A DNA stretch of 64,000 bases, from contig CAVSHJ010000022.1 of assembly GCA_963727725.1 (NCBI GenBank), positions 2,008-66,007 of the forward strand. The letters are read 5' to 3'. The DNA comes from Thermodesulfovibrionales bacterium. GTDB taxonomy: Bacteria > Nitrospirota > Thermodesulfovibrionia > Thermodesulfovibrionales > SM23-35. Below, piece after piece: positions 32,552 through 50,829 of this stretch. The notes below the pieces were generated by a model, which saw nothing but the letters and a program-made list of their open reading frames with translations, was not told the origin of the DNA and ran no database searches. The translations under genes were made by a program, and so were the position numbers. How positions within the stretch are numbered: the stretch's first letter is position 1; every line of letters begins with the position of its first letter.

Positions 32552-34115
32552 ATGGCAAAGAGACTCGTTGTTGATCCGGTAACAAGAATCGAAGGACATC
32601 TGAAGATCGAAGTGGAGATCGAGAATGACAAGGTAGTGGATGCATGGAGCAGCGGCACCATGGCACGTGGCTTTGAGGCGTTGCTGACGGGAAAAGACCC
32701 GAGGGATGCCCCATATGTGACCAGCCGTTTCTGTGGCGTTTGCTATAGCGTTCACCAGCTCGCTTCCTCGCGCGCACTCGATGCGGCATTCGGTGCGAGA
32801 GTCCCCTGGGGAGGTAATCTCATCAGGAATCTCGTGATGGGAGCGGAGTATATTTATGACCATGTGCTTCACTTTTACCAGTTGAGCGCACTCGACTACA
32901 TCGATATTATGGCTGTGGCAAATTATACGGGCAAAGACGAGGGACTGCTTGCGGTCAAGGACAAAATTGTCGGGCTGGTAAAGGAAAAAGATACTTATCC
33001 CTTTACACCGCGATATGAGCCTGATGAGTTCAGCGTCAAAGATCCCGAAATGGTGACAACGGCCGTCAAACATTATATCGACGCGCTGAAAATGCATGCT
33101 AAAGCGAGAGATATGGGAGCTATATGGGGAGGCAGAACGCCTCATTATCAGAACATAATTGTTGGCGGGGTTACCTCATACCCGGATATAAACCAGGTCT
33201 TCCGGTTCCGCACCATGCTCGATGAACAGAAGAAATTTGTTGAGGAGGTTTATATCCCTGATGTTCTTGCCTTTGGCACCGGACCTTTGTGGCCATTAGC
33301 TGAGATGGGGCTGGGCGGCGGACATTACAACTACCTCTCTTACGGTGACTTCCAGCTTGACCCGGGAGGGGAAGAAGATGGTATTCCCGGCCGGCGTCAT
33401 AACAGGGTTGAATCCTGCGGATATCGAAATCGCCCGTGTTGACCCCGAGAAGATTACGGAATCTGTGAAGTACGCCTGGTACAAGGAAGAGGCTGCTGTG
33501 CACCCGTATAACGGCGAGCAGGTCTTTGACCTGGACAAAAAGGATGCGTATTCATTTATAAAGGCGCCGCGCTATGAGGGTACGCCGATGGAGGTCGGAC
33601 CACTGGCGAGGATGATCGTCGCGAAGAACCCGGATATCCTCGGATTGGTAAAGAAAGGGGCTAAGCCGGGTGCAGTCGCCAGGCATGCAGCCAGGGCCAT
33701 AGAGACCAAGCTAGTTGTAGACGCCTGCTACACGTGGCTGGATCAGTTATTGAGTGAGATGACCCGGCCCGGCTTCAAGATCCAGGACTCCGATCATTGG
33801 GATCCTCCGGACAGTGGAATGGGCGCAGGCTTTTCCGAGCCGCCCAGAGGCGCCCTGGGACACTGGATAAAGGTAAAGGACAAGAAAATTGAGAATTACC
33901 AGGCGATAGTCCCGTCGACATGGAATGCATCTCCGCGTGACGAAAAGGGTGTCAGGGGGCAGTATGAAGAATCGTTAATCGGCACACCAGTGCCTGATCC
34001 AAAGAACCCCAACAACATAGTGAGGGTGATCCGTTCCTTCGACCCGTGCCTGGCCTGTGCAGTCCATATCATCGATCCGAATACGAACGAGGTCAGGAAA
34101 TTCATCATAGAGTGA
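32552..34115 (+). CDS. [NiFe] hydrogenase large subunit, frameshift near 33365
   Basis: DPVTRIEGH, L1 RFCGVC, L2 FDPCLACAVH plus cleavable tail; one extra G in CCCGGGAGGGG joins ORFs 32552..33442 and 33345..34115. Confidence 0.93.
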
Positions 34116-34878: not shown

Positions 34879-36681
34879 TTGATGAAGTCGGGAAAACTGG
34901 TTATAGCCCTCATTGCCTTTTCGATACTGATAGGCGCACTCGGAGGGTTCGTATACTGGACAATTTCGGACCTGCCGAATACAAAGCTGCTTGAAGAATA
35001 CGCCCCTCTCGAATCATCGAGAGTCTTTTCATCGGACGGAAAGGTAATTGCAGAACTCTACATTGAGCGCAGGACGTTTGTCCCTTCCTACCAGATCCCT
35101 GACCGTGTGAAGAAAGCCTTCATCTCCATCGAAGATATAAGATTCTACAACCATCCGGGTATCGATTTCATCGGCATAGTGAGGGCTCTGGGACGTGATA
35201 TCGAGGCAGGCGGGTTTGTTCAGGGGGCGAGTACGATCACTCAGCAACTTGCGAGGATGCTCTTCCTCAAACCGGACAAGAGTATAAAGAGAAAGATTAA
35301 GGAGGCGGCGCTCTCCATTATGATAGAACAGCGATATACGAAGGATGAGATACTCGGCATGTATCTCAACCAGGCGTATTTCGGCACAAGGGCATACGGT
35401 ATAGAAGCCGCTGCCCAGACATATTTCGGAAAGACGACAAAGGATCTGAATATTGCGGAGGCGGCCCTTCTCGCGTCAATGCCCAAGGCGCCGTCGGCAT
35501 ATTCTCCTTTCAGGTATCCGGAAAAGGCAAAGGAAAGAAGATCAACAGTCTTGAAACAGATGCTGGAACATGGATTCATAACGGAAGCGCAATACCGGGA
35601 AGCCGAAAATACACCTCTTCCGACAAACCCCAATTTCAGGAAATATGATGCTCCGTATTTTGTAGAAATCCTGAGACATGAACTCGAGTCAAAATATGGT
35701 AATGGAATATATACATCGGGTTACCGGATATATTCTACTCTTGATTCGGGGATGCAGAAGGCCGCTGAAGACGCTGTGAGGAACGGCATTTCCTCAATAG
35801 AAAAGAGGGTGAGACCGGGGGTTCAGGCCGCTCTTGTCGCGATAGACCTGAGAACAGGATATGTCAGGGCGATGGTAGGCGGGTCTGATTTCTGGAAGAA
35901 CCAGTTCAACAGGGCAACGCAGGCTCTGCGGCAGCCGGGGTCTGCATTCAAGCCATTCGTATATATGGCTGCGATCGAGGACGGGATGTCCGCCGAGGAA
36001 AGAATTAACGATTCGCCGGTTTCTTTTGGCGGAGCAAGACCGGGGCAGAGATGGAGTCCGCATAACTATGATGGAAAATACTATGGGAGTATTCCACTCA
36101 GGACCGCACTTGCGAAGTCACTCAATTGCGCCACAGTAAGGCTGGCGGCGAACCTGGGAGTTGACAATATTATCGAAATGGCAACACGGCTCGGGATCAG
36201 AAGCCGCCTCCAGCCCTATCTGCCGTTGGCTCTCGGAGCATCGGACGTGACACTGATGGACATGGTTTCCGCTTATTCGGCATTCGCCTCGGGATTCAGA
36301 CCAAAGCCGCTGTTTTATGAAAGGACACTCAATAGAGACGGAATAGTTATCGAGGAGAATGAACCCATTCTGACAGAACTCTTATCAGAAGACGATGTCG
36401 ATCAGATGAAGGTTCTTCTGAAAGCTGTCGTTCAAGAGGGCACTGCTATGAGGGCAAGAGAGTTAAAAAGGACCGTCTATGGCAAGACGGGCACGACGAA
36501 TGATTACACCGATGCATGGTTCATCGGGTTCGACGACGGGCTTGCCGTGGGTGTGTGGGTCGGCAGGGACGACCACACACCTATCGGAGCGAGGGAGACA
36601 GGCGCAAGGGCGGCGCTGCCGATATGGATTGATTTTATGAAAAAAGCGCTTCCACAAACTCTCTCGGATCAAAATCCCTGA
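34879..36681 (+). CDS. Penicillin-binding protein 1A family
   Basis: EDIRFY.HPGID, GASTITQQ; SAFK, SLN, KTG motifs. Confidence 0.95.
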   Translation: MMKSGKLVIALIAFSILIGALGGFVYWTISDLPNTKLLEEYAPLESSRVFSSDGKVIAELYIERRTFVPSYQIPDRVKKAFISIEDIRFYNHPGIDFIGIVRALGRDIEAGGFVQGASTITQQLARMLFLKPDKSIKRKIKEAALSIMIEQRYTKDEILGMYLNQAYFGTRAYGIEAAAQTYFGKTTKDLNIAEAALLASMPKAPSAYSPFRYPEKAKERRSTVLKQMLEHGFITEAQYREAENTPLPTNPNFRKYDAPYFVEILRHELESKYGNGIYTSGYRIYSTLDSGMQKAAEDAVRNGISSIEKRVRPGVQAALVAIDLRTGYVRAMVGGSDFWKNQFNRATQALRQPGSAFKPFVYMAAIEDGMSAEERINDSPVSFGGARPGQRWSPHNYDGKYYGSIPLRTALAKSLNCATVRLAANLGVDNIIEMATRLGIRSRLQPYLPLALGASDVTLMDMVSAYSAFASGFRPKPLFYERTLNRDGIVIEENEPILTELLSEDDVDQMKVLLKAVVQEGTAMRARELKRTVYGKTGTTNDYTDAWFIGFDDGLAVGVWVGRDDHTPIGARETGARAALPIWIDFMKKALPQTLSDQNP

Positions 36682-37543
36682 GATCATCAATTCCTTCGCC
36701 GACGCCTATCAGCCTGACAGGGATTCCAAGTCCCCGCCTTATGGCAAAGACGATACCCCCTTTTGCGGTACCATCGAGTTTTGTCAGTGCGATACCGGTT
36801 ATACCGACAGCCTGATTGAAAAGCTCTGCCTGCCTCAGCGCGTTCTGGCCTGTCGTTGAGTCCACTACAAGCAGGATCTCCTGAGGTGCTCCAGGCATCG
36901 CCTTATCGACGCTCCTTTTGACCTTTTTCAGTTCCTCCATAAGATTACTCTTGGTGTGGAGCCGTCCTGCGGTGTCTATGATTACGGCGTCTACACCTCT
37001 GCTCCGTGCAGCCACGACGGCATCATAGGCCACCGCCGCAGGGTCAGACCCACTCTGGTGCTTCACAAAATGAGTATCCGCCCTCTTTGCCCATATCTCG
37101 AGTTGCTCGATTGCTGCCGCCCTGAAGGTATCACCTGCCGCGAGTAACACCGAAAGACCCTGCGAGCGCAAGCGGCTTGCGAGTTTTCCTATTGTGGTTG
37201 TCTTGCCGACGCCGTTCACTCCTACTACGAGGATCACAAAAGGTTTGCTCCCAAAGATAACGATGGGCTGGGAATCACCGAGAATTGTCACCATTTCTCT
37301 TTTTAGAAGTTCTTTTACCGAATCTATATTTGTTGCTTCACCCTTTCGAGCCTTTTCCCTGATGACCGTCATTATCTCGGCAGCCGCCCGGGTACCGACG
37401 TCAGATGCGATTAAAATCTCCTCAAGTTCTTCCAGCGCCTCATCGTCAATGGCGCGACCCGTAAGAATGGACTCTACTTTTCCCATAAATGTCTTTCTCG
37501 TCTTTGTAAGGCTCTCTTTCAGCCGGTCAAAAAAACCCATCAT
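36635..37543 (-). CDS. ftsY: SRP receptor FtsY
   Basis: GFFDRLK, GVNGVGKTT, DTFRAAA, DTAGR, TKLDGTAKGG. Confidence 0.97.
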   Translation of the reverse strand: MMGFFDRLKESLTKTRKTFMGKVESILTGRAIDDEALEELEEILIASDVGTRAAAEIMTVIREKARKGEATNIDSVKELLKREMVTILGDSQPIVIFGSKPFVILVVGVNGVGKTTTIGKLASRLRSQGLSVLLAAGDTFRAAAIEQLEIWAKRADTHFVKHQSGSDPAAVAYDAVVAARSRGVDAVIIDTAGRLHTKSNLMEELKKVKRSVDKAMPGAPQEILLVVDSTTGQNALRQAELFNQAVGITGIALTKLDGTAKGGIVFAIRRGLGIPVRLIGVGEGIDDLRDFDPREFVEALFS

Positions 37544-37697: not shown

Positions 37698-38171
37698 ATG
37701 GATAAACCTATGCGATTCAGAATCAACAGCCCGAAAGTCATCCACGAAACTATTGACGGGGAGACGGTAATTGTCAATCTTGACAGCGGCAATTATTATA
37801 GTCTCGATAACGTGGGAGCCGGTGTCTGGGCTTTGATCGGAGGCGGTTTGCCGGTGCACGAAATTATCCGGGATATAGCCCGCCGCTATATCGGTGAACG
37901 AGAGGAGATGGATCAGGCTATTCATCAATTCGTCGGTCAATTGCAGGAGGAAGGACTGATTGTTACTGATGAATCTCATGTGAACAGCAGTGAACCGGGA
38001 TCGGGGACCCAGGACACAACACGAGCAATGGAAGGACATCCGGTCTTTGAGACTCCTGCCCTCCATAAATACAGCGATATGCAGGATTTACTCCTGCTGG
38101 ACCCCATACATGAGGTTGATGATACAGGTTGGCCGAGTCCTAAAAATGACGTTCCGGTGAGCGATGCATGA
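37698..38171 (+). CDS. PqqD/RRE-domain protein with a C-terminal lasso-leader-like and core-like peptide
   Basis: First ~90 aa (ETIDGETVIVNLDSGNYYSLDNVGAGVWALI..FVGQLQEEGLI) fit the PqqD fold; then a low-complexity linker and FETPALHKYSDMQDLLLLDPIHEVDDTGWP. Confidence 0.85.
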   Translation: MDKPMRFRINSPKVIHETIDGETVIVNLDSGNYYSLDNVGAGVWALIGGGLPVHEIIRDIARRYIGEREEMDQAIHQFVGQLQEEGLIVTDESHVNSSEPGSGTQDTTRAMEGHPVFETPALHKYSDMQDLLLLDPIHEVDDTGWPSPKNDVPVSDA

Positions 38172-38208: not shown

Positions 38209-40020
38209 ATGGATACGATCGAGTCATTGGAAGAACAGGAAGCTTTTTTCCGGGGTGTACATGATCGATTTTTAAAAGCGGTGGCTTCTGTCGGTGCGGT
38301 AAATTCTTACTACAGAATCTGTGACACCTCAGTCTGCCTCTCTTTTGCAGGCGAAGAACTAGTCCCGCATATAACACCTGCCCTGAGTCATCTCGCGATA
38401 CCTGAAGTCGAAAAGCCTGATCTCACAGTGTGTTTATGGGATAGTGTTTCAACCGAGACGGGTATGGTGCCGCCGCCGTGGAAACGCGACCGATATACAT
38501 ACAGGGGAGATATCTGGGGATATAACAGTGTCAGGATAAGAACCGCATTCCACTGGATTGAATTCTCCCTGAACATGCTGGACTTTGAAACGAATACAGG
38601 ACTGTTTTGGGTTGAACATACCCGGAGCCTGCCTTTTTGGGTGCATGCCTCTCCTCTCAGGACATTACTCCACTGGTGGATGGAAAAGAACGGGTGTCAG
38701 CTTGTTCATGCTGCGGCCGTTGGTACGGAAAGCGGGGCAGTCCTCCTGACGGGTAAAGGCGGGATCGGAAAATCAACCGCGGCCCTCTCCTGTTTGAAAT
38801 CAGGTTTTTTTTATCTCGGCGACGACTACGTCGTCACACGGGTGAGTCCGGAGCCATACGTATACACTCTATACAACACCGCGAAATTGGACGCAGATCA
38901 CGTAAAGAACTTTCCTGAGATCTCCCGCTTGATTTCGAATGCCGAAAACCTGAAAGATGAGAAAGCTGTCATATTTCTTTATCCGGAATTCGGCGCGCAG
39001 CTTGTCGGGACGATGCCGCTGAAAGCTGTCGTTGTCCCGCATGTCACAGATCACAGGGAATCGGGTGTTACAAGAATATCTTCCGAAAACGTTCTTCGGG
39101 CAGCATCCTTCACGACCATGACTCAATTGCCGGGTGCAGGTATCAAGACATATGAGTTTCTCAATGAATTATCGGCAAGACTTCCTTGCTTCAGCCTCGA
39201 ATCAGGCCGTGATCTTTCTCATATCCCTGTTGCTGTTTCCGGCTTATTGCAGACCCTTTCGGATGGAAAGATTGCCGATACTCTCAGGAAATCCACCGGA
39301 GAACAACGCCTGGCTCCCAAAGCGTGGCCGGTTGTGAGCATCATATTGCCGGTATTCAACGGAGAGCGATTTATCAGAGAAGCAGTGGAGAGCATCGTGT
39401 CTCAGGGCTATCCTTCCTTAGAGATAATTATCATAGATGATGGTTCCACTGATAAGACAAAGGATATTATTGAAGAAGTGCCGGTTGAGGTACGGTATTT
39501 CAGGCAGGACAACCGCGGCCCCGCAGCTGCCAGGAACAAAGGCGTCAGAGAAGCGACGGGAGATTTTGTTGCCTTTATTGATGTAGATGACCTGTGGCCG
39601 AAAAACAACCTCCATATGCTGGCAGAAGAGCTGCTGGAGGATAAGGACGTTGACGTGGTACATGGGTATGCCCAGCTTGCCCGCTATAACGATGTTACTC
39701 ACGAATGTGAGTATGCCGGAAATCCGGCAGAATCATTTCCCTATTACATCGGAGCTGCGCTGTACCGGAGATCGGTATTTACAAAGGTGGGCCTGTTTGA
39801 TCCGACACTGTTATATGGTGAAGATACTGACTGGTTTAAGCGGGCAGAGGAGTTGAAAGTAAATATCAGGAGACTGGAAGATGTGACCTTGATCGTCCGA
39901 AGACACGGAAAGAATATGACCTCTGCCAAAGACATGGTTGAATTGAATCACCTTCGTGTATTCAAGAAGAGTCTGGATAGAATGCGGGCACGCAGACAGG
40001 CAGACCATGTTCTTCCCTGA
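38209..40020 (+). CDS. HPr-kinase-like P-loop protein fused to a GT2 glycosyltransferase
   Basis: VHAAAV..LLTGKGGIGKST..YLGDD in the N-terminal part; VSIILPVFN, IDDGSTD, FIDVDD, GEDTDW in the C-terminal part. Confidence 0.85.
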   Translation: MDTIESLEEQEAFFRGVHDRFLKAVASVGAVNSYYRICDTSVCLSFAGEELVPHITPALSHLAIPEVEKPDLTVCLWDSVSTETGMVPPPWKRDRYTYRGDIWGYNSVRIRTAFHWIEFSLNMLDFETNTGLFWVEHTRSLPFWVHASPLRTLLHWWMEKNGCQLVHAAAVGTESGAVLLTGKGGIGKSTAALSCLKSGFFYLGDDYVVTRVSPEPYVYTLYNTAKLDADHVKNFPEISRLISNAENLKDEKAVIFLYPEFGAQLVGTMPLKAVVVPHVTDHRESGVTRISSENVLRAASFTTMTQLPGAGIKTYEFLNELSARLPCFSLESGRDLSHIPVAVSGLLQTLSDGKIADTLRKSTGEQRLAPKAWPVVSIILPVFNGERFIREAVESIVSQGYPSLEIIIIDDGSTDKTKDIIEEVPVEVRYFRQDNRGPAAARNKGVREATGDFVAFIDVDDLWPKNNLHMLAEELLEDKDVDVVHGYAQLARYNDVTHECEYAGNPAESFPYYIGAALYRRSVFTKVGLFDPTLLYGEDTDWFKRAEELKVNIRRLEDVTLIVRRHGKNMTSAKDMVELNHLRVFKKSLDRMRARRQADHVLP

Positions 40021-40107: not shown

Positions 40108-41409
40108 ATGATGAATCAACTTCTATTGGGGCACCGGGCCGTTTATCGGTTGATTAACGCCGATGAGGCGTTCGATCCGCAAAAACAGGTTCATATCTTC
40201 TGGGAAGGTACCCAGTTTGCAACAACTTCTTTTTCTCTCATAAACCGGGAACTGTGTTCAGGCATTATCGATTCCGGAATTGCAGAACTTACTATAGTGC
40301 CATATGAGCCGGCTCAGTTTGCTGTAGAAGGCAATCCGCGATTTGAAAGACTCGCTGCTCATGATATCCGCATTAAGGGGCTCTCCATTCGTGATCGCGC
40401 AAAGCGGCCGCATGTGTGGGTGCGTCATCAATGGCCTCCCCGGCCAAATCCGCCCGGCAAAGCTAAATGGATTATCATGCACCCATGGGAATATTCAGCA
40501 ATTCCCGGATTTTATGCCGATACCTTTTCCCTTGCCGAAGAAATCTGGACGCCGACAAATTTTTCACGCGATGCCTTTGTATCATCGGGAATTGACCCAT
40601 CGAAAGTCCATGTTGTGCCTAACGGTGTTGACCCTGAGATTTTCTCTCCGGCAGGGGAACCCTTGAGGCTTCCGACAACGAAGCGCTTCAAGTTCCTCTT
40701 TGTCGGGGGGACTATTTACCGTAAAGGGGTGGACATCCTGCTTGAGAGTTACTCACACGCTTTCACCTCTAAGGACGATGTCTGCCTGATTATCAAGGAT
40801 CTTGGAGTGAACACCCTTTACAAGGGGCAAACGGCACAGGATCTTATCAAGAGCTTCCGGAATGAGGAGGGCACGCCGGAGATCCTTTACATTGAGGATG
40901 AATTCAGTCGGGAGCAAATGGCTGGACTTTATCGGGCCTGCGATGTTTTTGTTTCATCCTACCGGGGCGAAGGTTTTTCGCTGCCTGCCCTTGAGGCGAT
41001 GTCAAGTGGTCTCCCGGTCATCGTAACCCGCGGCGGGGCCACAGATGATTTTGTTGATGAAGAAGTAGGCTGGTGTATCGACTCCGCAAGACGTCGTGTC
41101 AGGAAGGTCTATGGCCATGAAGTCGACGGAGAAGGTTTCCTGCTCGAACCGAGCAGGAGGCATCTTGAGGAAATCCTGCGAGAAGCATATAATTCGCCCT
41201 CGGAGATCATGAAGAAATCGATCGAAGGCGCATTGCGGGCGCGAAACCACTGGACATGGAAACATTCTCTACGTCGCCTTCTTTTAAGGATTGATTCACT
41301 GTGCGGGACGAGTATGGGGGTTGATGCACAAAAGGGTTTCAGAGATGCCGACGGAGATACCGCTTTCATAAGGAAGGCGATCACGCAAAAACATAGAGGA
41401 CATGGATAG
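40108..41409 (+). CDS. GT4-family glycosyltransferase
   Basis: VVPNGVD, RKGVDILL, YRGEGFSLPALEAM. Confidence 0.9.
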   Translation: MMNQLLLGHRAVYRLINADEAFDPQKQVHIFWEGTQFATTSFSLINRELCSGIIDSGIAELTIVPYEPAQFAVEGNPRFERLAAHDIRIKGLSIRDRAKRPHVWVRHQWPPRPNPPGKAKWIIMHPWEYSAIPGFYADTFSLAEEIWTPTNFSRDAFVSSGIDPSKVHVVPNGVDPEIFSPAGEPLRLPTTKRFKFLFVGGTIYRKGVDILLESYSHAFTSKDDVCLIIKDLGVNTLYKGQTAQDLIKSFRNEEGTPEILYIEDEFSREQMAGLYRACDVFVSSYRGEGFSLPALEAMSSGLPVIVTRGGATDDFVDEEVGWCIDSARRRVRKVYGHEVDGEGFLLEPSRRHLEEILREAYNSPSEIMKKSIEGALRARNHWTWKHSLRRLLLRIDSLCGTSMGVDAQKGFRDADGDTAFIRKAITQKHRGHG

Positions 41410-42106
41410 ACCTCTGGTAAGTGTCATAGTTGCAGTTTCCGATGGTGAACGCTACATAGGTTCTGCCCTTCACAGTATCTTCAGGCAGAACTATTACCCT
41501 TTTGATATTATTGTTGTTGATGGACAGTCGGTTGACCGTACCGCTGCGATAGCACAATCGTTCAAATCAGTCAAATACATCTATCAAGCGGGACACGGTC
41601 TGGCAAATGGCCGTAATAGGGGAATAGAAGCGGCTCAGGGAGAGTTTATCGCTTTTCTTGACTCTGATGACCTTTGGACACCGGACAAGCTTGGTATCCA
41701 GATTGATTATCTCCTGCGAAACCCTGAACTTCAGTATGTGAATGCATGGGTTCAGTTGTTTGTCGACTGGGGATACAGTCTGAGGTCCAGGTATACGAAG
41801 AAGTTTCTGGAGCAGGCACACGTAGGTCGTACGCCGGGCACGCTGGTAGCTCGAAAGTCTGTCTTTGATCTTGTCGGCCTGTTTAGTCCGGATTTCAACA
41901 TCGCATGTGATGCCGAATGGTTTGTGCGGGCCAATGGCTGCAGGATTCCCATGTTCATTGTCCCCGAGGTTCTGCTTTATAAACGAATTCACGATAATAA
42001 TCTTTCATCCAATGTGAGCATAAACAGGAAGGAGTTAATGGAGGTAATAAGACAATCAATTATGCGGCAACGACAACAGGAACATATAATTCTCTATGGC
42101 AAATGA
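41402..42106 (+). CDS. GT2-family glycosyltransferase
   Basis: LVSVIV, VVDGQS.D, FLDSDD, RIHDNNL. Confidence 0.9.
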   Translation: MDRPLVSVIVAVSDGERYIGSALHSIFRQNYYPFDIIVVDGQSVDRTAAIAQSFKSVKYIYQAGHGLANGRNRGIEAAQGEFIAFLDSDDLWTPDKLGIQIDYLLRNPELQYVNAWVQLFVDWGYSLRSRYTKKFLEQAHVGRTPGTLVARKSVFDLVGLFSPDFNIACDAEWFVRANGCRIPMFIVPEVLLYKRIHDNNLSSNVSINRKELMEVIRQSIMRQRQQEHIILYGK

Positions 42107-42875
42107 AAAGCTGGTGAGCGTGGTCATACCCGTTTATAATGGTGAACGGTATCTTGGCGGAGCAATCGAGAACGTACTGGCTCAGGACTATCGGCCAATT
42201 GAGATAATTGTGATAGATGACGGATCCACCGATAATACGGAACCCGTTGCTCGGAGTTACGGGAGAGATATCGTCTATGCCCACCAGGAAAACCGAGGAC
42301 CGGCAGCAGCCCGTAATAAAGGGCTGCAAATAGCCTCCGGGGACATTGTAGGTTTCCTTGATGTTGATGACCTTTGGAGCGAGAATAAACTCCCGGTTCA
42401 GTTTGCCCGTCTGGCGGACGACCCTTCAGTGGAAATTGTTCTGGGGCTCACTCAGCTTATGAAGTTGCAGGTGGACGAAGAGGGCAGACCTAAATTCGAA
42501 AAATGGCATGATCCTTTCTGCGCGTTTCTGCTCGGCGCGGCACTCTTTAGAAAATCGGTGTTTGAGAAACTGGGATTTTTCGATGAGACGCTTTATCACA
42601 GTGAAGACACTGACTGGTTTCTGCGGATCAGGGAGATGCAGGTCTGTACGACCCTTATAGATGAGGTGAGTCTTTTTTATCGCTGGCACGAGTCCAATAT
42701 GACCCTTGATTCGGCTGGATGTAACAGATATCTTATAAAAGCCCTAAAAAAATCACTTGACAGACGGAGGCGGCAAAACCGCAATCAGGCTGAGTCTCTG
42801 CCCGGACTCTCTTGTATTGCAGAAAAATCCGCCGGAAGACTTCCCGATTCAGGAAAATCACGGGCAAAGGACTGA
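42096..42875 (+). CDS. GT2-family glycosyltransferase
   Basis: VIPVYN, IDDGSTD, FLDVDD, SEDTDW. Confidence 0.9.
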   Translation: MANEKLVSVVIPVYNGERYLGGAIENVLAQDYRPIEIIVIDDGSTDNTEPVARSYGRDIVYAHQENRGPAAARNKGLQIASGDIVGFLDVDDLWSENKLPVQFARLADDPSVEIVLGLTQLMKLQVDEEGRPKFEKWHDPFCAFLLGAALFRKSVFEKLGFFDETLYHSEDTDWFLRIREMQVCTTLIDEVSLFYRWHESNMTLDSAGCNRYLIKALKKSLDRRRRQNRNQAESLPGLSCIAEKSAGRLPDSGKSRAKD

Positions 42876-42879
42876 TCGG

Positions 42880-44103
42880 ATGGCAAAAACTGTGACACCA
42901 AAGCAGATCTGGGAACGCGCCCTCGCGGGCACCAGGTGGCTTGTGCAGCATCAGAATCAGGACGGAAGTTGGGTGGGACTGAAGGATCAGAAAGTGGGTG
43001 CCTTTTATAAGGCGAGCTGGGCATTTTCGGAGACCGGGCAATCTGCTGCAGCCCACCGTGCCCTCAACTATGTCCATCGTCACTTTTTCACTGAAGCAGG
43101 TGACTTCTTATACAGTCAGCCGGCTGAGGTCGGTTCTTTGCTCGGTAGTTATCCTTACGTCAACTCTTATATTATCATAGGCAGCATGCGTGCCGGACGT
43201 TACGATATCGCGCTGCCTGCGGTCTCTTTTTTGCTTGCACGGCAAGCTGCGGATCATGGGGGATTCTATTCGCGCTTGACTCAACAGGGAGTGAAGACCA
43301 TGGCCGATACCATATCTTCAGCTACAGCGGGCATCGCGTGTCTGGCCGCCGGGGAACTTGAAGCAGCCCGACGCGTTGCCGACTACCTGGGCCGTATGGT
43401 CCGTCTTCAGCCCCGGCCGGATGATCGCTTTTTCACTACCATTGACGCAGAGGGACATCTATACACTAACGTCAAGGATGACGACGACGCGTTTCTGCGT
43501 ACCATCGACACCGGGAAAGCAGATCAGTGCTGGTACGCTGTTGGACTACCGCTGGCTTTCCTCGTTCTGCTGGAAAGTGCGACGAGTGATACCAGGTACC
43601 GGGAGCTGGCACAATGGTACTTCGATTTTCAAGAGCGCTGTGTTAATCCCTGGGATGGCTACTCAAGCGGTAAAGCCGGATGGGGGTGTGCGATGCTCTA
43701 TCGCGTTACGGGGGAGTTGCGCTACCGGGACATTGCGTTGCACGTTGCGCAAAGCATTATGGACAGGCAGAGAAGAGACGGCAGCTGGCTGTCCGGCAAG
43801 AGCAAGCAAGGGGAACTCACTGACCCCGACTTTGATTTGACAGGCGAATTCACCCTGTGGCTGTCACTGATTTCCTCCAATGTGCTTGCGCGGGATTCAT
43901 GCTGCATCCCTCTCGCAGTCAATGAGACAAGAATTCCAAAACCGAAGCGTACACAAAGTCTGAGAGAAACATTGCGCCGGACTGCCGCAGCGCATTACCG
44001 AATATTGAGAAACGAGGGTCTTGGGAAGTACTTGATGCGCTCTTATCATTACAGAAAGGGGCAGGTCTTAAGGTGGATCAGGAAAGAGTCCCACGCAAAC
44101 TAG
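42880..44103 (+). CDS. Alpha/alpha-barrel protein with QW (prenyltransferase/squalene cyclase-like) repeats, function unknown
   Basis: WLVQHQNQDGSW, FLLARQ..HGGF, MDRQRRDGSW, LYRVTGELRYRD; likely start ATG 42880. Confidence 0.6.
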   Translation: MAKTVTPKQIWERALAGTRWLVQHQNQDGSWVGLKDQKVGAFYKASWAFSETGQSAAAHRALNYVHRHFFTEAGDFLYSQPAEVGSLLGSYPYVNSYIIIGSMRAGRYDIALPAVSFLLARQAADHGGFYSRLTQQGVKTMADTISSATAGIACLAAGELEAARRVADYLGRMVRLQPRPDDRFFTTIDAEGHLYTNVKDDDDAFLRTIDTGKADQCWYAVGLPLAFLVLLESATSDTRYRELAQWYFDFQERCVNPWDGYSSGKAGWGCAMLYRVTGELRYRDIALHVAQSIMDRQRRDGSWLSGKSKQGELTDPDFDLTGEFTLWLSLISSNVLARDSCCIPLAVNETRIPKPKRTQSLRETLRRTAAAHYRILRNEGLGKYLMRSYHYRKGQVLRWIRKESHAN

Positions 44104-45122
44104 CAAAGGCGGAACGTAACTCCGTAAAACTTGTACGACGGCTGGGACGAACGGGGTTTGAAGTGAATGTTCTCGGAGTGGGAGGACACACTTATCCGGT
44201 CGGCGACAGCCCTGATTGTTTCATGACCCCGGACGCTCGCGCTAAGCTTATTAGTCGTCTCGTATCTTCCGGCGTAAATTATTTTGATACGACTGACATG
44301 TGTGAAGTGGAACTGTTAGCTGATTCTTTCAAACGTGCGGATATAAGGGAGAATGTGGTCGTTTCTCTTCATGGAGGGCGCATCTCGGACCCACAATGGT
44401 TTGAAAAGCTTCGCCCGGGAATTGAATCAAGACTCGATATTTTGGGGTATGAGCGTGCACCTTTATTCATCACGAGTGTCGGGGATGGCGACGCCTCTTA
44501 TGCTGACTTAGTTGCAGCCTGCCAAGCGATGACAAAACTTAAGGAGGAAAACCTCGTTCAGAACATCGGTCTCAGTTGCCACACGACAAGTCTGTTCCCC
44601 GCGGTCAGCCGTGTCATCCGTGAAACCGATATGATTGATTATGTCATGGTGCGGTTTAATTGGAAAGACCGGCGGGCTGACGAGGAGCTTTTTCCGGCAG
44701 CTGAGGATCACGATGTCGGCATCGTGCTGATGAAAATTTTTTGTTGGGATTGTTACCCATCACAGTGGGAGAGAAGGATCAGTGTCTTCGAGCCCCTGAG
44801 TTGCGAAAGCTGCGTTGAGGACAATTCATCTCTGACACCGGCCCAACGAAATATATTGTGGTGCATTCAAAATTCAGCTTGCGACGTTATCGTACCCTCA
44901 ATGAATACCATGCATGAGGTCGAAGAGAATATTCGGGCCCTCAAGTCGATAGATGCGGATGTTGTCACGGAGGACTTTGAGAAGTACAGCGGCAGACTCT
45001 GGGACAAGAAGGAGATCAAAACTCTGGCTCTATATGCGGAAAGCAAAATAATACGTGAGAGGGCCGAGTTTTTGTTGAACCCAAAGCGAACGGCGCCGGC
45101 ACATTTTAATGCGGACTATTAA
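44073..45122 (+). CDS. Aldo/keto reductase family protein (3' end possibly frameshifted)
   Basis: RRLGRTGFEVNVLGVG, GVNYFDT, IGLSCH, DVGIVLMK, PSMNT..EVEENI. Confidence 0.8.
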   Translation: MDQERVPRKLAKAERNSVKLVRRLGRTGFEVNVLGVGGHTYPVGDSPDCFMTPDARAKLISRLVSSGVNYFDTTDMCEVELLADSFKRADIRENVVVSLHGGRISDPQWFEKLRPGIESRLDILGYERAPLFITSVGDGDASYADLVAACQAMTKLKEENLVQNIGLSCHTTSLFPAVSRVIRETDMIDYVMVRFNWKDRRADEELFPAAEDHDVGIVLMKIFCWDCYPSQWERRISVFEPLSCESCVEDNSSLTPAQRNILWCIQNSACDVIVPSMNTMHEVEENIRALKSIDADVVTEDFEKYSGRLWDKKEIKTLALYAESKIIRERAEFLLNPKRTAPAHFNADY

Positions 45123-45972
45123 AGCGCATTACAGGATATTGAAGAACGAAGGTCTCAAGAAGTACCTTCAGCACTCTTATCATTATAGAAAGGGGCAACT
45201 TTTCAACTGGCATCAGAAAGATCCGGACCTGATGTTATTACGTCAGAATGCACGGGGTGTCATGAGAGAGAAACGTCCTTTGGTAAGTGTTGTCATAACG
45301 GTATTTAACGGTGAAGAATATCTGCGGGAAGCCATCGAAAGCGTGCTCGGCCAGACCTACCGGTCGTTTGAACTCATTGTGGTAGACGACGGCTCGACAG
45401 ACAATAGCGGTGCGATAGCGAAGAGCTTTGCTTCACAACTGCGATACTTCTACCAGGATAACAGCGGTCAGGGAGCCGCTCTCAACAGGGGCATAGAGTT
45501 ATCCGGAGGATGCTTTCTCTCCTTCCTCGATGCCGATGATCTCTGGACGGAAGATAAATTAATGCATCAGGTGGCGGCCTTTGATAATAATCCTGATGTG
45601 GATATGGTATTCGGACAGGTGGAACAGTTTTACAGTTCCGAGCTTGATGAGAATCAGAGGAAAAGGATCAGGATTCCTGCCAAGATTATGCGGGGATTTT
45701 TTAAGGGCAGCATGCTTATTAAGCGGGATTCCTTTTTTCGAGTCGGGACATTTGACACAAGGTGGAAGTTGGGAGACTTTATTGACTGGTATTTGAGGGC
45801 GATGGAAAAGGGCCTTAGGAGCGTTATGCTGAATGAAGTCGTTATGTTGAGGAGGATCCATGCGGACAATATGGGCATTCGTGAGCGCAAGTTGCGCCCC
45901 GAGTTTGTAAGAATTCTCAAGGCCTCTCTTGATCGGCGCCGCAAGATTCATAATGCTGAGACAGACATATAG
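45109..45972 (+). CDS. GT2-family glycosyltransferase (domain starts ~45262; upstream part may belong to the AKR)
   Basis: LVSVVITVFN, VDDGSTD, FLDADD, RRIHADN. Confidence 0.9.
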   Translation: MRTIKAHYRILKNEGLKKYLQHSYHYRKGQLFNWHQKDPDLMLLRQNARGVMREKRPLVSVVITVFNGEEYLREAIESVLGQTYRSFELIVVDDGSTDNSGAIAKSFASQLRYFYQDNSGQGAALNRGIELSGGCFLSFLDADDLWTEDKLMHQVAAFDNNPDVDMVFGQVEQFYSSELDENQRKRIRIPAKIMRGFFKGSMLIKRDSFFRVGTFDTRWKLGDFIDWYLRAMEKGLRSVMLNEVVMLRRIHADNMGIRERKLRPEFVRILKASLDRRRKIHNAETDI

Positions 45973-45975
45973 TTC

Positions 45976-46755
45976 ATGGTAAAACGGACGATTAGAGAAA
46001 CCATGCCTCTTGTGAGTGTTATCATACCGGCATATAACTGTGAAAGGTTCATCGCAGAAGCGGTGAAGAGCGTAAGGTTACAAAACTATGAACCGCTCGA
46101 GATTATTATAATCGATGACGGTTCAACAGACGGGACCCAAGCATGTGTAAAAAGCCTTGGTGAGGACATCCGCTATGTGTATCAGTCGAACAGGGGCCCG
46201 GCGGCAGCCCGCAACACAGGTATCGCAATGGCCAGGGGCGAAATGATCGCATTTCTCGATGCCGACGATTACTGGCCTGCAAACAAATTGAAAGTTCAAA
46301 TGGCGCGTATGAACAGAGATCCGGAAATGGAAGTCGTTTTAGGTCGCATCCGGTGTACCGGGGTATTGACGGAAGCAGACAGAAAAATCCGTTTTGAGGG
46401 TCCGGACAATACCATGATAAGCATTTGCCTGGGCAGTGGTGTTTTCAGAAAATCCGTTTTTGACAAGGTGGGCCTCTTCGATGAATCCTTACGCCATTAT
46501 GAAGATCATGACTGGTTCCTGCGTGCCAGGGAGAAGGACATTTCGATAATAATACTGAAAGATATTACGCTTCATAATCGCCGGAATGAATACAGCATGA
46601 GCCGCAGAAAGAATAAGAATGATCCAAGCATGATCCGGATACTCAAGAAATCGTTAGACCGTCGCCGTCAGCAGAAAAAGGGTCCCGTTGAGTTATCCCC
46701 CGATTTTTTTGACTTTGACGAGGGGAAGACATCACAGAGGAATATAAAGCCGTGA
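45976..46755 (+). CDS. GT2-family glycosyltransferase
   Basis: VSVIIPAYN, IDDGSTD, FLDADD, YEDHDW. Confidence 0.9.
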   Translation: MVKRTIRETMPLVSVIIPAYNCERFIAEAVKSVRLQNYEPLEIIIIDDGSTDGTQACVKSLGEDIRYVYQSNRGPAAARNTGIAMARGEMIAFLDADDYWPANKLKVQMARMNRDPEMEVVLGRIRCTGVLTEADRKIRFEGPDNTMISICLGSGVFRKSVFDKVGLFDESLRHYEDHDWFLRAREKDISIIILKDITLHNRRNEYSMSRRKNKNDPSMIRILKKSLDRRRQQKKGPVELSPDFFDFDEGKTSQRNIKP

Positions 46756-48608
46756 ACAGAAAGATAAAAATATTATTTTGGACTCCGTTTTTTCTCCCGG
46801 ACATAGGCGGCATTGAAACATTAAGCGCCAAATTGCTGCCTGCGCTGCAAGAGCAGGGTTATGATATCACGGTACTTACTTCCCACGGGAAATATGACGT
46901 CGCCGATAAAACAGAGTTTAATGGTATACCGGTTTTCCGTTTTCATACGCGAAATGCCATAGGAAAGCGCGACCTGTCCCGGATATTCGAGATCCGCGCA
47001 CAGGTGGCCAGGCTCAAACAGTCCTTCAAGCCGGACCTTATACACATACACATGAGCGACCCGAGCGTCTATTTTCATCTGAGTACCGCTGCTGCCTGTC
47101 CCGCACCGACAATAGTGAGCATACACCAGGACATTGAGTATTATGGTTTTCAGGGCGGCGAGGATACATTGCTTGGGAATGCGCTTCATATGGCCGATTG
47201 GGTTACTGCCGTTTCCAGTGCGACATTATCCGATCTGCTCCGTATTGCACCGGAGATAAGGAATTGCTCTTCTGTAATTTATAATGGGGTTGACCCGCCG
47301 GATATTGTCCCCGACCCTATTTCTTTCGATCCGCCCCGGATTTTGTGTCTGGGAAGACTTATACATGCTAAAGGCGTTGATCTGGCAATTGCAGCTTTTG
47401 CCTCACTCTTGAATCGCTGGCCGAGGGCACGCCTGACAATTGTTGGCGAGGGACCACAGCGAAATCAATTGGAAAAACAGGCCGCCGGGCTTGGTCTCGC
47501 GGACTCGGTGAAGTTTACAGGAATGGTCAGGCCTGAAGACGTTCCCGCACTTATGAATCAGGCTACAATCGTCGTCATGCCCTCACGGGTCGAGGGTTTC
47601 CCGATGCGGGTGCTTGAAGTAGCGCAAATGGCAAGACCGGTGGTGGCAACTCCGGCAGGTGGTTTGCCGGAGGCGATTGTTCATCAACAGACCGGATTAA
47701 TAGTGGAGCACGAAAATAGTCCGGCTATCGCCGATGCAGTTGGCTTTTTCCTTGACCATCAGGAGACAGCTTCCAGAATGGGTGAGGCTGCGCGTTCGCG
47801 GGTGCTCAAAATGTTCAGTCTGAAGAGTTGCGTGGACTCCTATAGCAGACTCTACCGCAGGATCGTCGGCGAATACCCGATGCTCGCTTATGACGGAGCG
47901 ACAGTGACGGGTATTCCACCTCTGATAAGCATCATTGTGCCGGTTTACAACGGTGAAGAATATTTGTCCGAGGCAATTGACAGCGTTTTAACTCAAACCT
48001 ATCGCACTACCGAAATCATTCTGGTCGACGATGGTTCAACCGACGGGAGCCCAAAAATCGCGGAGCTTTTTTCGCCTGTCCTGAAGTACTGCTATCAAGA
48101 GAATGCCGGTACCGGCGCGGCACGAAATAGAGGGGTAGAACTGGCGCAGGGCAGTTTCTTTGCGTTCCTGGATGCTGATGATGTCTGGCTGCGGGACAAA
48201 CTCCTGATTCAGATGGCAGCGTTTTACGATGATCCTGAAATTGATATTGTATTCGGTCATGTTAAGCAGTTCTACAGCCCGGAATTGGACGGGTTGCAAG
48301 GAGCAGACTGCGTCTGTACGGATGAAGCGATGCCGGGATTCCTGCCCTGTACGATGTTAATAAAACGGGAAGCATTCTTTCAGGTGGGTCTGTTTGAGAC
48401 CAATTGGCGGCTGGGGCAGGACGTGAGCTGGATAATGCGGGCCCGAGAGCGCGGTCTCCGTGAGGTGATGGTGCCTGACGTTATATATATGCGACGACTT
48501 CACAAGAACAATAAAGGTATCACCCATCGACAATTCGGCAGGGACCGCATCAGAATACTGAAAGCGTCACTCGATCGGCGGCGCGGGCTGCGGGGACAGC
48601 AAGGGTAA
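46752..48608 (+). CDS. GT4-GT2 fusion glycosyltransferase
   Basis: GT4 (IYNGVD, GRL..AKG, PSRVEGFP..LE) followed by GT2 (IIVPVYN, VDDGSTD, FLDADD). Confidence 0.9.
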   Translation: MNRKIKILFWTPFFLPDIGGIETLSAKLLPALQEQGYDITVLTSHGKYDVADKTEFNGIPVFRFHTRNAIGKRDLSRIFEIRAQVARLKQSFKPDLIHIHMSDPSVYFHLSTAAACPAPTIVSIHQDIEYYGFQGGEDTLLGNALHMADWVTAVSSATLSDLLRIAPEIRNCSSVIYNGVDPPDIVPDPISFDPPRILCLGRLIHAKGVDLAIAAFASLLNRWPRARLTIVGEGPQRNQLEKQAAGLGLADSVKFTGMVRPEDVPALMNQATIVVMPSRVEGFPMRVLEVAQMARPVVATPAGGLPEAIVHQQTGLIVEHENSPAIADAVGFFLDHQETASRMGEAARSRVLKMFSLKSCVDSYSRLYRRIVGEYPMLAYDGATVTGIPPLISIIVPVYNGEEYLSEAIDSVLTQTYRTTEIILVDDGSTDGSPKIAELFSPVLKYCYQENAGTGAARNRGVELAQGSFFAFLDADDVWLRDKLLIQMAAFYDDPEIDIVFGHVKQFYSPELDGLQGADCVCTDEAMPGFLPCTMLIKREAFFQVGLFETNWRLGQDVSWIMRARERGLREVMVPDVIYMRRLHKNNKGITHRQFGRDRIRILKASLDRRRGLRGQQG

Positions 48609-48647: not shown

Positions 48648-49665
48648 ATGTATTCTATTTGTACCATGAAGAAATTAATAGATTTCATATACGGCAGTGC
48701 ATGGGGTTTGGTGAGAAGGTTCAGATTTTACTTTAGCCGTCAAGGATTATGCTATTTTTCTGATTATAGAAACAGAAAGACTATTAAAATGACGGGCATC
48801 GGAAATTGTGAAAGCAGGGTCCGCTTTTATCCTTCGGTCCATCATTTTATTCATAATATGCCCTGTCTTTTTCCCAGGCGGAATTATGATTATCTGGTTG
48901 CCCAGAATTTTCTTTACGAAGAATTTTTATCGTGCCGAAAGCCAAAAGTATTTTTTACGCTGGAACCCCCTCCAACCATGACTCAGGAGACCAGGAGAAA
49001 TTTGCAGCGTGAAGCATTGAAGCCGTTCCTCTATCTGTATGATGAACCCGATATTAACAAGCGAATGTTTTATCCGTCCCTCGCTGACCACAGAGAAGAA
49101 ATTATCAGGCACCTTGAAGAAACACTTGAGGAAAAACGCCCGCGGCTTTGCTGTATCATTAACCGATATTCGGAACATCCGGAACTGGATCTTGTTCGCC
49201 AAAGAATTCTGTTTGTCAAGACGATGGGAAGCGATATCGACATTTACGGGGCAGAGCCATGGGGTGTGTCGAACAAATGGAGAACATTTCCCTAATTATT
49301 ACGGCATGGCGGAAAACAAACAGGAAATACTGAAAAAATATAATTTTGTACTGGCATTTGAGAACAGCAATTTCCCGGGATATATCACTGAAAAGATCAT
49401 CGACGCCTTTAAAGCCGGCACGGTTCCGCTCTACTGGGGCGGAGGAAAGTTACTGCAGGAGATTTTTCCCTCAGATTGTTACATAAACTGCAGTAATCAG
49501 GACCCTGCGAGAATCCACCGGATGATAAAGGATATGCCGCAGAAGGACATTGTTTCATTCAGAAGGGCAGCCATAGAATTTCTGAAATCCGATATGGCTG
49601 ATCGATTTATGGGCAGTTATTTGAAGCAGGAAATTGTAAAGAGGCTGGAAGGCGCACATATATGA
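48648..49665 (+). CDS. GT10 (alpha-1,3-fucosyltransferase-like) protein, frameshift near 49290
   Basis: KYNFVLAFENSNFPGYITEKIIDAFKAGTVPLYWG in 49039..49665; N-terminal part in 48648..49295. Confidence 0.8.
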
Positions 49666-49668
49666 TGA

Positions 49669-50829
49669 ATGAAGAGATTGTTTGTGAATACAAGGAAGTA
49701 TAGCCGCCACTGCCTGCCTTCGTCAGAGCAGGAATTGCTCTTGCGGGCTGCTCTCTTAAAGGGGACAGACTCCGTTGAGGCGTGGAAAGAATGGAAGTCA
49801 TCTGTTGACGTAGAACAGGTCGATGCGGCTTCCCATCGAATGTTGCCGCTGCTTTATCGCAACCTGCGGGCCCTTGGAATCAAAGACCCTTCGATGGGTA
49901 AATATAAAGGCGTTTACCGTCACACATGGTACAAGAACCAGATATTGTTCCATGCCATCGCTTCTCTTCTCCGTTCTTTTGAAGGTGCAAATATACAGAC
50001 CATGATACTCAAGGGAGCTGCCCTGACCCTGCTTTACCATAGAGATTATGGTCTGCGCCCGATGAACGATTTCGACGTTCTCATTCGACCGGACAAGGTC
50101 CTTCCTGCAATCAGGTTATTAGAGACGCTGGGATGGTCGCCGATAGATTTCGTGCCGACGGAGGAATATATCTCCGTGAGTTATTCACACGGATTTAAAA
50201 ACAGCGCCGGTCAGGAATTCGATCTTCATTGGCATCTTTTGTCACAGTCCCGCGGGATGAATGCCGACGATGATTTCTGGAATGGAGCGGTAACGGCCGA
50301 CATTAATGATGTTGCTGCATATACCCTGAATCCGGCCGATCAATTGTTGCATGTCTGCATTCACGGGGCGAGATGGAATTTCATACCGCCATTCCGCTGG
50401 GTGGCCGATGCAATGACCGTTCTTGATACCTCACAAGCCGGGATTGACTGGAACAGACTTATCGGGCAGGCTGAAAAGCGACATTTGGTCTTACCGCTGC
50501 TTGATACACTGAGCTATTTGAAAGAGATATTTGGCGCTCCTATTGCACCGGAAATTTTCAGAAGCCTTGAAGATATACCTGTACCGAATATTGAACGCAT
50601 AGAATATAAAATCGCCGTCATCCCTCCCACACAGTGGACAGCCGTGTTAGACCTCTGGTGCCAGCATTGCCGTCTGGCGGAAGATTCGGGTTTGGCGCGC
50701 AAGATTGCGGGATTCCCGAAATTTCTGCAGAATATATGGGGAATACCTCCGTGGAGATTGCCTCTCTACGGTCTGCTAAAAACAATGACATGGCATACAA
50801 ACCGTCTGTCGAAGAAACCTCCGAAATAG
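49669..50829 (+). CDS. Nucleotidyltransferase family protein (NTP_transf_5-like)
   Basis: ILKGAAL..Y..GLRPMNDFDVL, FDLHW, HVCIHG, RWVAD. Confidence 0.8.
   Translation: MKRLFVNTRKYSRHCLPSSEQELLLRAALLKGTDSVEAWKEWKSSVDVEQVDAASHRMLPLLYRNLRALGIKDPSMGKYKGVYRHTWYKNQILFHAIASLLRSFEGANIQTMILKGAALTLLYHRDYGLRPMNDFDVLIRPDKVLPAIRLLETLGWSPIDFVPTEEYISVSYSHGFKNSAGQEFDLHWHLLSQSRGMNADDDFWNGAVTADINDVAAYTLNPADQLLHVCIHGARWNFIPPFRWVADAMTVLDTSQAGIDWNRLIGQAEKRHLVLPLLDTLSYLKEIFGAPIAPEIFRSLEDIPVPNIERIEYKIAVIPPTQWTAVLDLWCQHCRLAEDSGLARKIAGFPKFLQNIWGIPPWRLPLYGLLKTMTWHTNRLSKKPPK

Follow-up and report, generated by a model that had tools for sequence, protein, structure and literature searches.

The first gene of an operon in a 64,000-nt stretch of DNA from a Thermodesulfovibrionales bacterium (referred to below, at its full length, as the window) encodes a lasso-B1-like RRE with a C-terminal tail on a tether, an architecture that is confirmed by the present analysis. 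Conservation of the tail, its obligate fusion to the RRE, synteny of the surrounding genes, and covariation between the leader cleft and the tail were all observed in this study. Our preferred reading, to which we assign a probability of about 0.6, is that the RRE-tail protein is a lasso-B1-type RRE permanently loaded with its own leader and acts as an adaptor or carrier of a machine built from a kinase and glycosyltransferases.

According to this reading, a tether of approximately 22 to 29 residues would let the motif F117-xx-P120-x-L122 reach the canonical RRE leader cleft, where F117 would occupy the first aromatic pocket beside residue 74 and L122 the second pocket, while residues 123-125 would add a strand to the RRE sheet. 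Docking most likely takes place within one molecule, and this choice of cis rather than trans is one that we infer. The invariant block that follows, DMQDLLLLDPIHxVDxxGWP, would stay unpacked on the RRE and be displayed to enzymes encoded by the neighboring genes. These partners would be an HPrK/PEPCK-fold kinase (here fused to a GT2 domain) and a PF14907 nucleotidyltransferase, both of which may bind the block and perhaps act on it chemically. For them the displayed block could serve as a docking handle and possibly as an acceptor. As the cassette holds no leader peptidase, the tail would stay attached, and the loaded RRE would be a fixed adaptor or carrier subunit of the kinase-plus-glycosyltransferase machine.

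The gene, its upstream neighbor, and the parts of the encoded protein are as follows.

36635..37543, opposite strand: ftsY, upstream of the RRE-tail gene
37698..38171, + strand: gene of the RRE-tail protein, 157 aa, first gene of the operon (open reading frame list)
37713..37967, + strand: PqqD/RRE winged-helix domain, residues ~6-90 (Pfam PF05402, AF2, Foldseek)
37968..38045, + strand: flexible tether, residues 91-116 (column entropies, AF2 pLDDT, length statistics)
38046..38075, + strand: putative built-in RRE-binding motif F117-x-x-P120-x-L122 followed by H-K-Y-S, residues 117-126 (conservation, AF2, DCA)
38076..38135, + strand: invariant block D127-M-Q-D-L-L-L-L-D-P-I-H-E-V-D-D-T-G-W-P146 (conservation)
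38136..38171, + strand: variable C-terminal stub, residues 147-157, plus stop codon

An earlier note on this DNA had placed the tail at 38046-38171, behind a PqqD fold and a linker, and the open reading frame, the codon positions, and the match to PF05402 bear this out. The codon of F117 occupies 38046-38048 and the TGA stop ends at 38171, so that the interval 38046-38171 covers FETPALHKYSDMQDLLLLDPIHEVDDTGWPSPKNDVPVSDA exactly. The PqqD profile PF05402 matched residues 22-88 with 54.9 bits against a cut-off of 23.4, and AF2 modeled RRE residues 11-90 with pLDDT above 90. The profile, the winged-helix fold (a three-stranded sheet and three helices), and a hydrophobic leader-binding cleft lying between helix 3 and the last strand of the sheet, which together define PqqD membership, are all present. 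Two NCBIfam models of lasso RREs scored below their cut-offs (lasso_PqqD_Bac, 54 against 80; lasso_PqqD_Strm, 28.4 against 70).

The RRE resembles structurally characterized leader-binding proteins in profile, fold, and cleft. A profile built from 120 homologs matched the solved structures of TbiB1 (E 7e-16), PbaB1 (4e-13), LppB (2e-6), and TfuB1 (8e-4), and a Foldseek search with the AF2 model of the RRE returned target-normalized TM scores of 0.86-0.90 for TbiB1 (5v1u/5v1v) and 0.87 for TfuB1 (6jx3_B). The hydrophobic leader cleft is intact in the window protein (Y33, Y34, S35, L36, V43, W44, I60, Y64, M71, F78, L82, and L87) and is conserved in a set of 448 sequences, where Y34 was found in 414, L36 in 324, I or V at position 43 in 422, Y or F at position 64 in 434, F or L at position 78 in 432, L82 in 407, and L87 in 431. 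The leader-pocket residues of LppB and PbaB1 were taken from the structural-basis section of PMC13381572; in alignments, LppB T30, L32, N33, V35, C39, I56, Y60, V63, V67, D70, F74, M78, and L83 each correspond to window residue n+4. According to that section, LppB D70 makes a hydrogen bond to the hydroxyl group of the leader Tyr, PbaB1 Gln79 binds the leader Trp, residues E-9 to L-7 of PbaA, the three that follow the motif Leu, extend the RRE sheet of PbaB1 in the crystal, and LppB is insoluble without its leader (PMC13381572). Residue 74 of the window protein aligns with LppB D70, with an Asp in TbiB1, and with PbaB1 Q79.

A match of a single sequence to [FYW]xxPxL would be weak when taken alone, and the case for the tail is built on conservation. 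Of 2208 candidates (86-275 aa) in the homolog search, 2182 proteins reached E ≤ 0.001, and the best 120 of these, which share 49-85% identity with the window protein at 91-100% query coverage, were aligned. F117, P120, L122, D127, M128, Q129, L132, L133, D135, P136, I137, H138, G144, W145, and P146 are invariant in this alignment, and Y125, L131, L134, V140, and D141 are conserved in at least 90% of it. The linker columns 94-116 have entropies of approximately 2.5-3.6 bits. In a wider set of 364 sequences, F117 was present in 356 and replaced by Tyr in 7, P120 was present in 363, and D127, P136, H138, and GWP were each present in all 364. The tail is thus far better conserved than the linker. 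The objection that the earlier note had itself raised, namely that the tail might not be conserved among homologs, clearly fails, because 15 tail positions are invariant in 120 sequences while columns 94-116 vary. The same note had called the linker Ser/Gly/Thr-rich, a description that fits loosely; across the family, linkers are rich in E, A, S, G, and P. The stretch from L87 to F117 has a median length of 28 residues (5th percentile 22, 95th percentile 29, minimum 13, maximum 34; n = 448), and the C-terminal stub after GWP has a median of 9 residues and a range of 3-27 (n = 448).

The family is large and widely scattered. Of 7767 candidates in a profile search, 6510 proteins (clusters at 90% identity) matched at E ≤ 1e-5. 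In species genomes, 581 of 598 pattern-matched stretches contained a relative, and members occur in Nitrospirota, Desulfobacterota, Acidobacteriota, Chloroflexota, Cyanobacteria, and other phyla. Its distribution is patchy; of 201 genomes sampled from the phylum, 2 carry the tail, one of them being the genome from which the window derives.

The fusion of RRE and tail is obligate in the loci that were inspected. These comprised 80 genome loci, obtained by whole-protein alignment, and 80 metagenome loci, obtained with tail-only queries, and the two parts were located by tblastn with separate queries, since a strict regular expression for the tail had missed 34 of the 160. An RRE lies upstream of the tail and in the same frame in 158 of the 160 loci, and the other 2 have less than 330 nt of upstream sequence at contig ends. 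When residues 108-157 were searched against proteins of 30-85 aa, 6 matches were obtained among 7 candidates; we read these as truncated fragments, three of which retain part of the last helix of the RRE. A phmmer search with the tail alone returned 1910 cluster representatives at E ≤ 0.001. The best 150 of the 1910 are mostly 140-165 aa long with the tail at the C-terminus, and each of ten short matches comes from a single contig, two of them clustering at 90% with full-length proteins. Four short matches of 46-56 aa (P0184, P0192, P0257, and P0213) have no identical metagenome locus, the best reaching 87%. Taken together, the short-protein search, the exhaustive phmmer search, and the 160 loci yielded no convincing natural stand-alone tail; a rare split form of RRE and tail may exist.

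Several observations point to docking of the tail in the leader cleft, and this part of the proposal, in cis or in trans, we consider very probable. It is deduced from AF2 confidence, strand register, covariation, the conserved cleft, and the narrow range of linker lengths, the interface itself not being seen directly. In the AF2 model (120 sequences), pLDDT is 82-86 for residues 111-130 and below 50 for linker residues 96-110. DSSP assigned a strand to residues 123-125 of the model, straight after the motif Leu, and the register of this predicted strand is that of PbaA on PbaB1 in the crystal. The earlier note had suggested an AlphaFold model as a check on its claim that the leader folds back into its own RRE cleft. 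The model agrees with docking, as do cleft conservation and covariation of positions 74 and 117, while "its own" goes further than these data, which do not tell cis from trans. Its alignment of the tail with the lasso leader pattern fared similarly. FxxPxL behaves as an RRE-binding motif of the lasso/LPP type, and the extension of the match to G(-8) and T(-2) finds no support, position 126 being T, S, N, or Y.

Covariation was analyzed by mean-field DCA over residues 6-90 and 116-149, for which sequences with more than 5% gaps were dropped and 356 were left. The pair A74-F117 ranked 4th of 6565 pairs. The top 45 pairs included 14 between RRE and tail, compared with a share of 44% among all pairs, so that there is no overall enrichment. 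Three other pairs, D59-E118, E85-K124, and L46-H123, were set aside, as their cross-tabulation was uninformative or possibly phylogenetic. The pairing of positions 74 and 117 was followed further. Tyr117 was found in 7 sequences of the first set, which are mutually 32-48% identical and of which 5 have D74. The set of 448 sequences was deliberately enriched for Tyr117 by a Tyr-type profile search seeded with these 7, and in it D74 accompanies Tyr117 in 31 of 38 members (S in 6, E in 1), against 10 of 409 members with Phe117, in which residue 74 is mostly A, S, G, or T. A naive Fisher test of the association, which ignores kinship, gave p 2e-32. Many of the 38 Tyr117 members are close kin that fall into approximately 8 motif groups, and in about 6 of about 8 lineage groups Y117 comes together with D74, compared with a background of 2.4%. 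The tree, built with FastTree, requires no fewer than 8 F/Y changes. A sign test of Y117/D74 on it was not significant (median p 0.5), because its well-supported branches carry just 2 independent F/Y pairs.

The invariant block behaves differently from the docked segment. AF2 gave pLDDT of approximately 57-58 for residues 131-150, and the block is therefore not confidently packed on the RRE. D127, D135, H138, and W145 are its universal side chains, and no Ser or Thr in the tail is universal. Among 120 homologs, position 126 is T in 64, S in 45, N in 9, and Y in 2; position 143 is T in 85, A in 24, and S in 8; and position 147 is N in 56 and S in 49. In the set of 448, Ser occurs after GWP in 254 sequences, Ser or Thr in 331, and neither in 117. 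The tail had been described in the earlier note as presenting an uncleaved core with His, Thr, Ser, or Asp as possible acceptors. A core with Ser/Thr acceptors is not supported: of 120 homologs, 24 carry Ala in place of Thr143 and 56 carry Asn in place of Ser147, the segment behind GWP lacks both Ser and Thr in 117 of 448 members, and there is no peptidase among the 10 recurring neighbor families annotated. Only His138, Asp127, and Asp135 of the proposed acceptors are universal, and a His or Asp of the block may be a candidate acceptor. An uncleaved core may still be present, with Ser and Thr disfavored as acceptors. The remark in that note about a cleavage-critical Thr replaced by Leu loses its relevance, because the operon frames scanned encode neither a lasso B2 protease nor a cyclase, and a search of the genome gave no match to PF13471. 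Invariance of this degree is more easily reconciled with a protein-protein interface than with a RiPP core. In a complex prediction, tail residues 108-157 were combined with RRE residues 1-95 and the kinase-like domain; a control with chain 1 replaced scored equally high, so that the score speaks neither for nor against binding.

The genes downstream of the RRE-tail gene provide the setting in which the loaded RRE would act.

38209..40020, + strand: 603-aa kinase-GT2 fusion (Pfam, NCBIfam)
38209-39258, + strand: HPrK/PEPCK-fold P-loop kinase-like domain, residues 1-~350 of the 603-aa fusion
+ strand, within the same fusion: GT2 glycosyltransferase domain, residues ~377-553 (Pfam/NCBIfam)
40108..48608, + strand: run of glycosyltransferases (GT4, four GT2, a GT4-GT2 fusion), plus an aldo/keto-reductase-like gene and an open reading frame with no hit (Pfam, NCBIfam)
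49669..50829, + strand: PF14907 (NTP_transf_5) nucleotidyltransferase, Pfam 142.6 bits, last + strand gene of the operon

After the kinase-GT2 gene the operon order is GT4, GT2, GT2, the open reading frame with no hit, the aldo/keto-reductase-like gene, GT2, GT2, GT4-GT2, a GT10-like gene, and PF14907. Beyond the operon, on the other strand, lie further GT4 genes, a GDP-mannose dehydratase, epimerases, and methyltransferases. More than 10 GT domains are encoded at the window locus; no lipid-carrier priming transferase, flippase, or polymerase, and no peptidase, was found among the open reading frames scanned there, and the scanned operon frames included no lasso B2 protease or lactam synthetase. 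The failure to find PF13471 applies to an own genome that is 85% complete. The kinase-like domain keeps the Walker A P-loop and the acidic pair behind it; in 42 sequences, G182, G185, G187, K188, and D205 are invariant and D206 is conserved in at least 90%. Its AF2 model has a mean pLDDT of 95.2, and its best Foldseek matches are PEP carboxykinases (E ~1e-11); the HPrK and PEPCK folds are kin. The Pfam model Hpr_kinase_C scored 23.5 against a cut-off of 33.3, which makes the domain a distant HPr-kinase-like member.

This association recurs across the family. A kinase homolog lies downstream in 69 of the 80 genome loci; of the 11 loci where none was found, 10 extend no more than 2.6 kb downstream. 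A PF14907 homolog was found in 57 of the 80, nearly always on the same strand and just downstream. The usual order is RRE-kinase or RRE-nucleotidyltransferase-kinase on one strand, with PF14907 often directly between the other two, and a GT2-like segment follows the kinase within 500 nt, fused or adjacent, in 40 of 69 loci. Recurring neighbors in the 80 loci are GT2 (55), an MsbA-like ABC exporter (24), GT4 (12), an epimerase (9), a sulfotransferase (6), and a radical SAM/SPASM protein (5). No peptidase was present among the 10 recurring neighbor families annotated. A search of the 80 loci for small open reading frames (25-89 aa) showed no conservation wider than a group of 4 closely related loci; it would overlook hypervariable peptides that have just a short motif in common. 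One locus, in a Bryobacterales MAG (L054), has 8 kb of downstream sequence and is the sole such locus without a kinase or PF14907 by tblastn; its arrangement may differ.

Some further features of the window and of its genome were recorded. The open reading frame with no Pfam or NCBIfam match (42757..44103, + strand), of ~410-448 aa, lies in the glycosyltransferase operon and has homologs in 2 of the 80 loci. The GT10-like region (48648..49665, + strand) consists of two overlapping frames, 48648..49295 and 49039..49665, and the match to the GT10 fucosyltransferase C-terminal domain is confined to the second; the pair may represent a single gene that has a frameshift or was given a wrong start. 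At 54290..55194 on the - strand, adjacent frames of 126 and 172 aa correspond to the C- and N-terminal halves of a GT4, apparently a single gene interrupted by a frameshift or stop. At 32552..34115 on the + strand, two frames overlap in different reading frames (32552..33442 and 33345..34115), with an end motif of the DPCLACAVH type. We take them to be two pieces, N-terminal and C-terminal, of the large subunit of a [NiFe] hydrogenase whose gene may carry a frameshift, and a hydrogenase maturation-protease-like frame follows the pair. Elsewhere in the same genome, contig C20 (12922-13677, - strand) carries a second PF14907 nucleotidyltransferase (216 bits), and contig C9 (L163:6739-10409; G000:C9:3000-20000) carries a second PqqD protein, of 106 aa and tail-less. 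The tail-less gene lies amid genes for a Peptidase_C25, a radical SAM protein, and a 297-aa HPr-kinase-like protein, which form a different RiPP-like cassette.

The loaded-adaptor reading has to be weighed against several alternatives, two of which concern the fate of the displayed block. One holds that the tail is the true substrate, the protein being its own precursor: the residue phosphorylated by the kinase would lie within the invariant block or behind it, and a phosphate-linked glycan would be built on the uncleaved protein by the nucleotidyltransferase and the glycosyltransferases. We regard this as possible though less than probable. It would account for the lack of a separate conserved precursor frame and of a peptidase among the 10 annotated neighbor families, for the GT2-like segment within 500 nt behind the kinase in 40 of 69 loci, and for a window locus with more than 10 GT domains and without priming transferase, flippase, or polymerase. 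Related enzymes also provide precedent, since LppK and PsmK are described as phosphorylating precursors and PsmN as adding a hexose to phosphoserine (PMC13381572, PMC9266682). However, the tail offers no universal Ser or Thr (position 126 is mixed, 24 of 120 homologs have Ala at position 143, and 117 of 448 have neither residue after GWP), and LppK is reported to reject Thr or Tyr in place of Ser (PMC13381572). Moreover, variability is the rule in RiPP cores, and the invariance of this block is more in keeping with an interface. A related and rather doubtful proposal is that the RRE-tail protein is a self-priming protein carrier, in which the kinase would phosphorylate the displayed tail at His138, an Asp, or Ser/Thr126, and the GT2 domain, PF14907, and the glycosyltransferases would assemble a glycan on the protein. 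If true, a glycan pathway primed by a protein and independent of a lipid carrier would have arisen from RiPP machinery and reached many phyla.

The other alternatives concern where the tail binds. Docking in trans, with the tail of one copy filling the cleft of another and dimers or head-to-tail chains scaffolding the enzymes, is equally compatible with all of the evidence for cleft docking, and the linker is long and disordered; yet the linker measures 22-29 residues in 90% of 448 members, which is easier to understand as a fixed intramolecular reach, and AF2 docks the segment in a monomer, so that we find this arrangement unlikely. It is very unlikely that the tail is an autoinhibitory pseudo-leader that a true precursor from another part of the genome would displace. 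The cleft is intact, and a Phe in place of the hydrogen-bonding Tyr or Trp of known leaders might bind more weakly, but no conserved small frame appears in the 80 loci, the 20 invariant residues after the motif would be needless for a simple plug, and the only other PqqD gene of the genome sits in a different cassette. Least probable in our judgment is that the tail is an independent short linear motif or mini-domain outside the cleft and that its likeness to FxxPxL is coincidental. [FYW]xxPxL is indeed short and the tree-corrected covariation test was not significant; against coincidence stand the invariance of F, P, and L at exact spacing, the AF2 strand in crystal register, and the tracking of Y117 by D74 in about 6 of about 8 lineage groups over a 2.4% background.

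The closest known system is the machinery of LPP and paeninodin. The linear polyphosphorylated peptide (LPP) clusters of Bacillota, to which LPP is reported to be restricted, have the order lppA-K-B-S-D-N (Popov et al., Nat Commun 2026, PMC13381572). As described there, an LppB-type RRE reads a [Y/W]xxPx[L/V] motif in its hydrophobic cleft; the precursors are separate proteins of 35-200 aa with the N-terminal leader YxxPxVLxHQxIxFETxxS; an SpI-like leader peptidase, LppS, is present; and the acceptor is phospho-Ser3, LppK phosphorylating Ser only and leaving S3T and S3Y variants unmodified (PMC13381572). Similar to the LPP clusters as described, the RRE-tail loci combine an RRE, an HprK-like kinase, and an NTP transferase as a core amid glycosyltransferases (kinase in 69 of 80 and NTP transferase in 57 of 80 loci), and 24 of 80 include an MsbA-like ABC exporter. 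Unlike in LPP, the motif here is C-terminal, fused to the RRE, and Phe-initial, and a different invariant block follows PxL; there is no peptidase among the window frames scanned or the 10 annotated neighbor families (the test for LppS was negative), no universal Ser, and no separate LppA-like precursor; and the family crosses phyla rather than being confined to Bacillota.

Paeninodin and pseudomycoidin clusters are described as having a B1-type RRE, an HPr-kinase-like kinase that acts on the precursor, and PsmN, which adds a hexose to phosphoserine (PMC9266682). The B1-type RRE, the HPr-kinase-like kinase, and a nucleotidyltransferase homolog are shared with the RRE-tail cassette, whereas their B2 protease, C cyclase, separate precursor, and C-terminal Ser acceptor are all missing from it. 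The complexes TbiB1-TbiA, TfuB1-leader, PbaB1-PbaA, and LppB-LppA (5v1u/5v1v, 6jx3, 9x90, 9x8z) agree with the RRE-tail protein in fold, pocket residues, and motif spacing; in those complexes the leader is a separate chain, and here it belongs to the same polypeptide. Compared to lasso B1 proteins, the NCBIfam models fall below cut-off, no B2 or C is found among the operon frames scanned, the motif is in cis, and the T(-2) equivalent is Leu. By the defining tests of lasso B1 and of LPP, the RRE-tail family belongs to neither, but it plainly follows the same recognition logic.

No description of a natural RRE-leader fusion was found in the literature searched, including the passages of PMC13381572 consulted, although the supplements of that paper might list such RREs.

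In engineered leader-enzyme fusions of RiPP synthetases, which are laboratory constructs, a tethered leader keeps the recognition site occupied. To our knowledge, a tethered leader has so far been described only from protein engineering, and the RRE-tail protein would be the first natural example; compared to those constructs it would be a natural, ancient, and widespread case. RRE-kinase-nucleotidyltransferase cassettes without a visible precursor are a common puzzle in genome mining, and a recognition motif built into the RRE itself, if this is correct, would solve it for the RRE-tail family. Since three adjacent genes define both the substrate or adaptor and its enzymes, the cassette also provides a handle on what the PF14907 enzymes and the HPrK-like kinases of the LPP/paeninodin world build.
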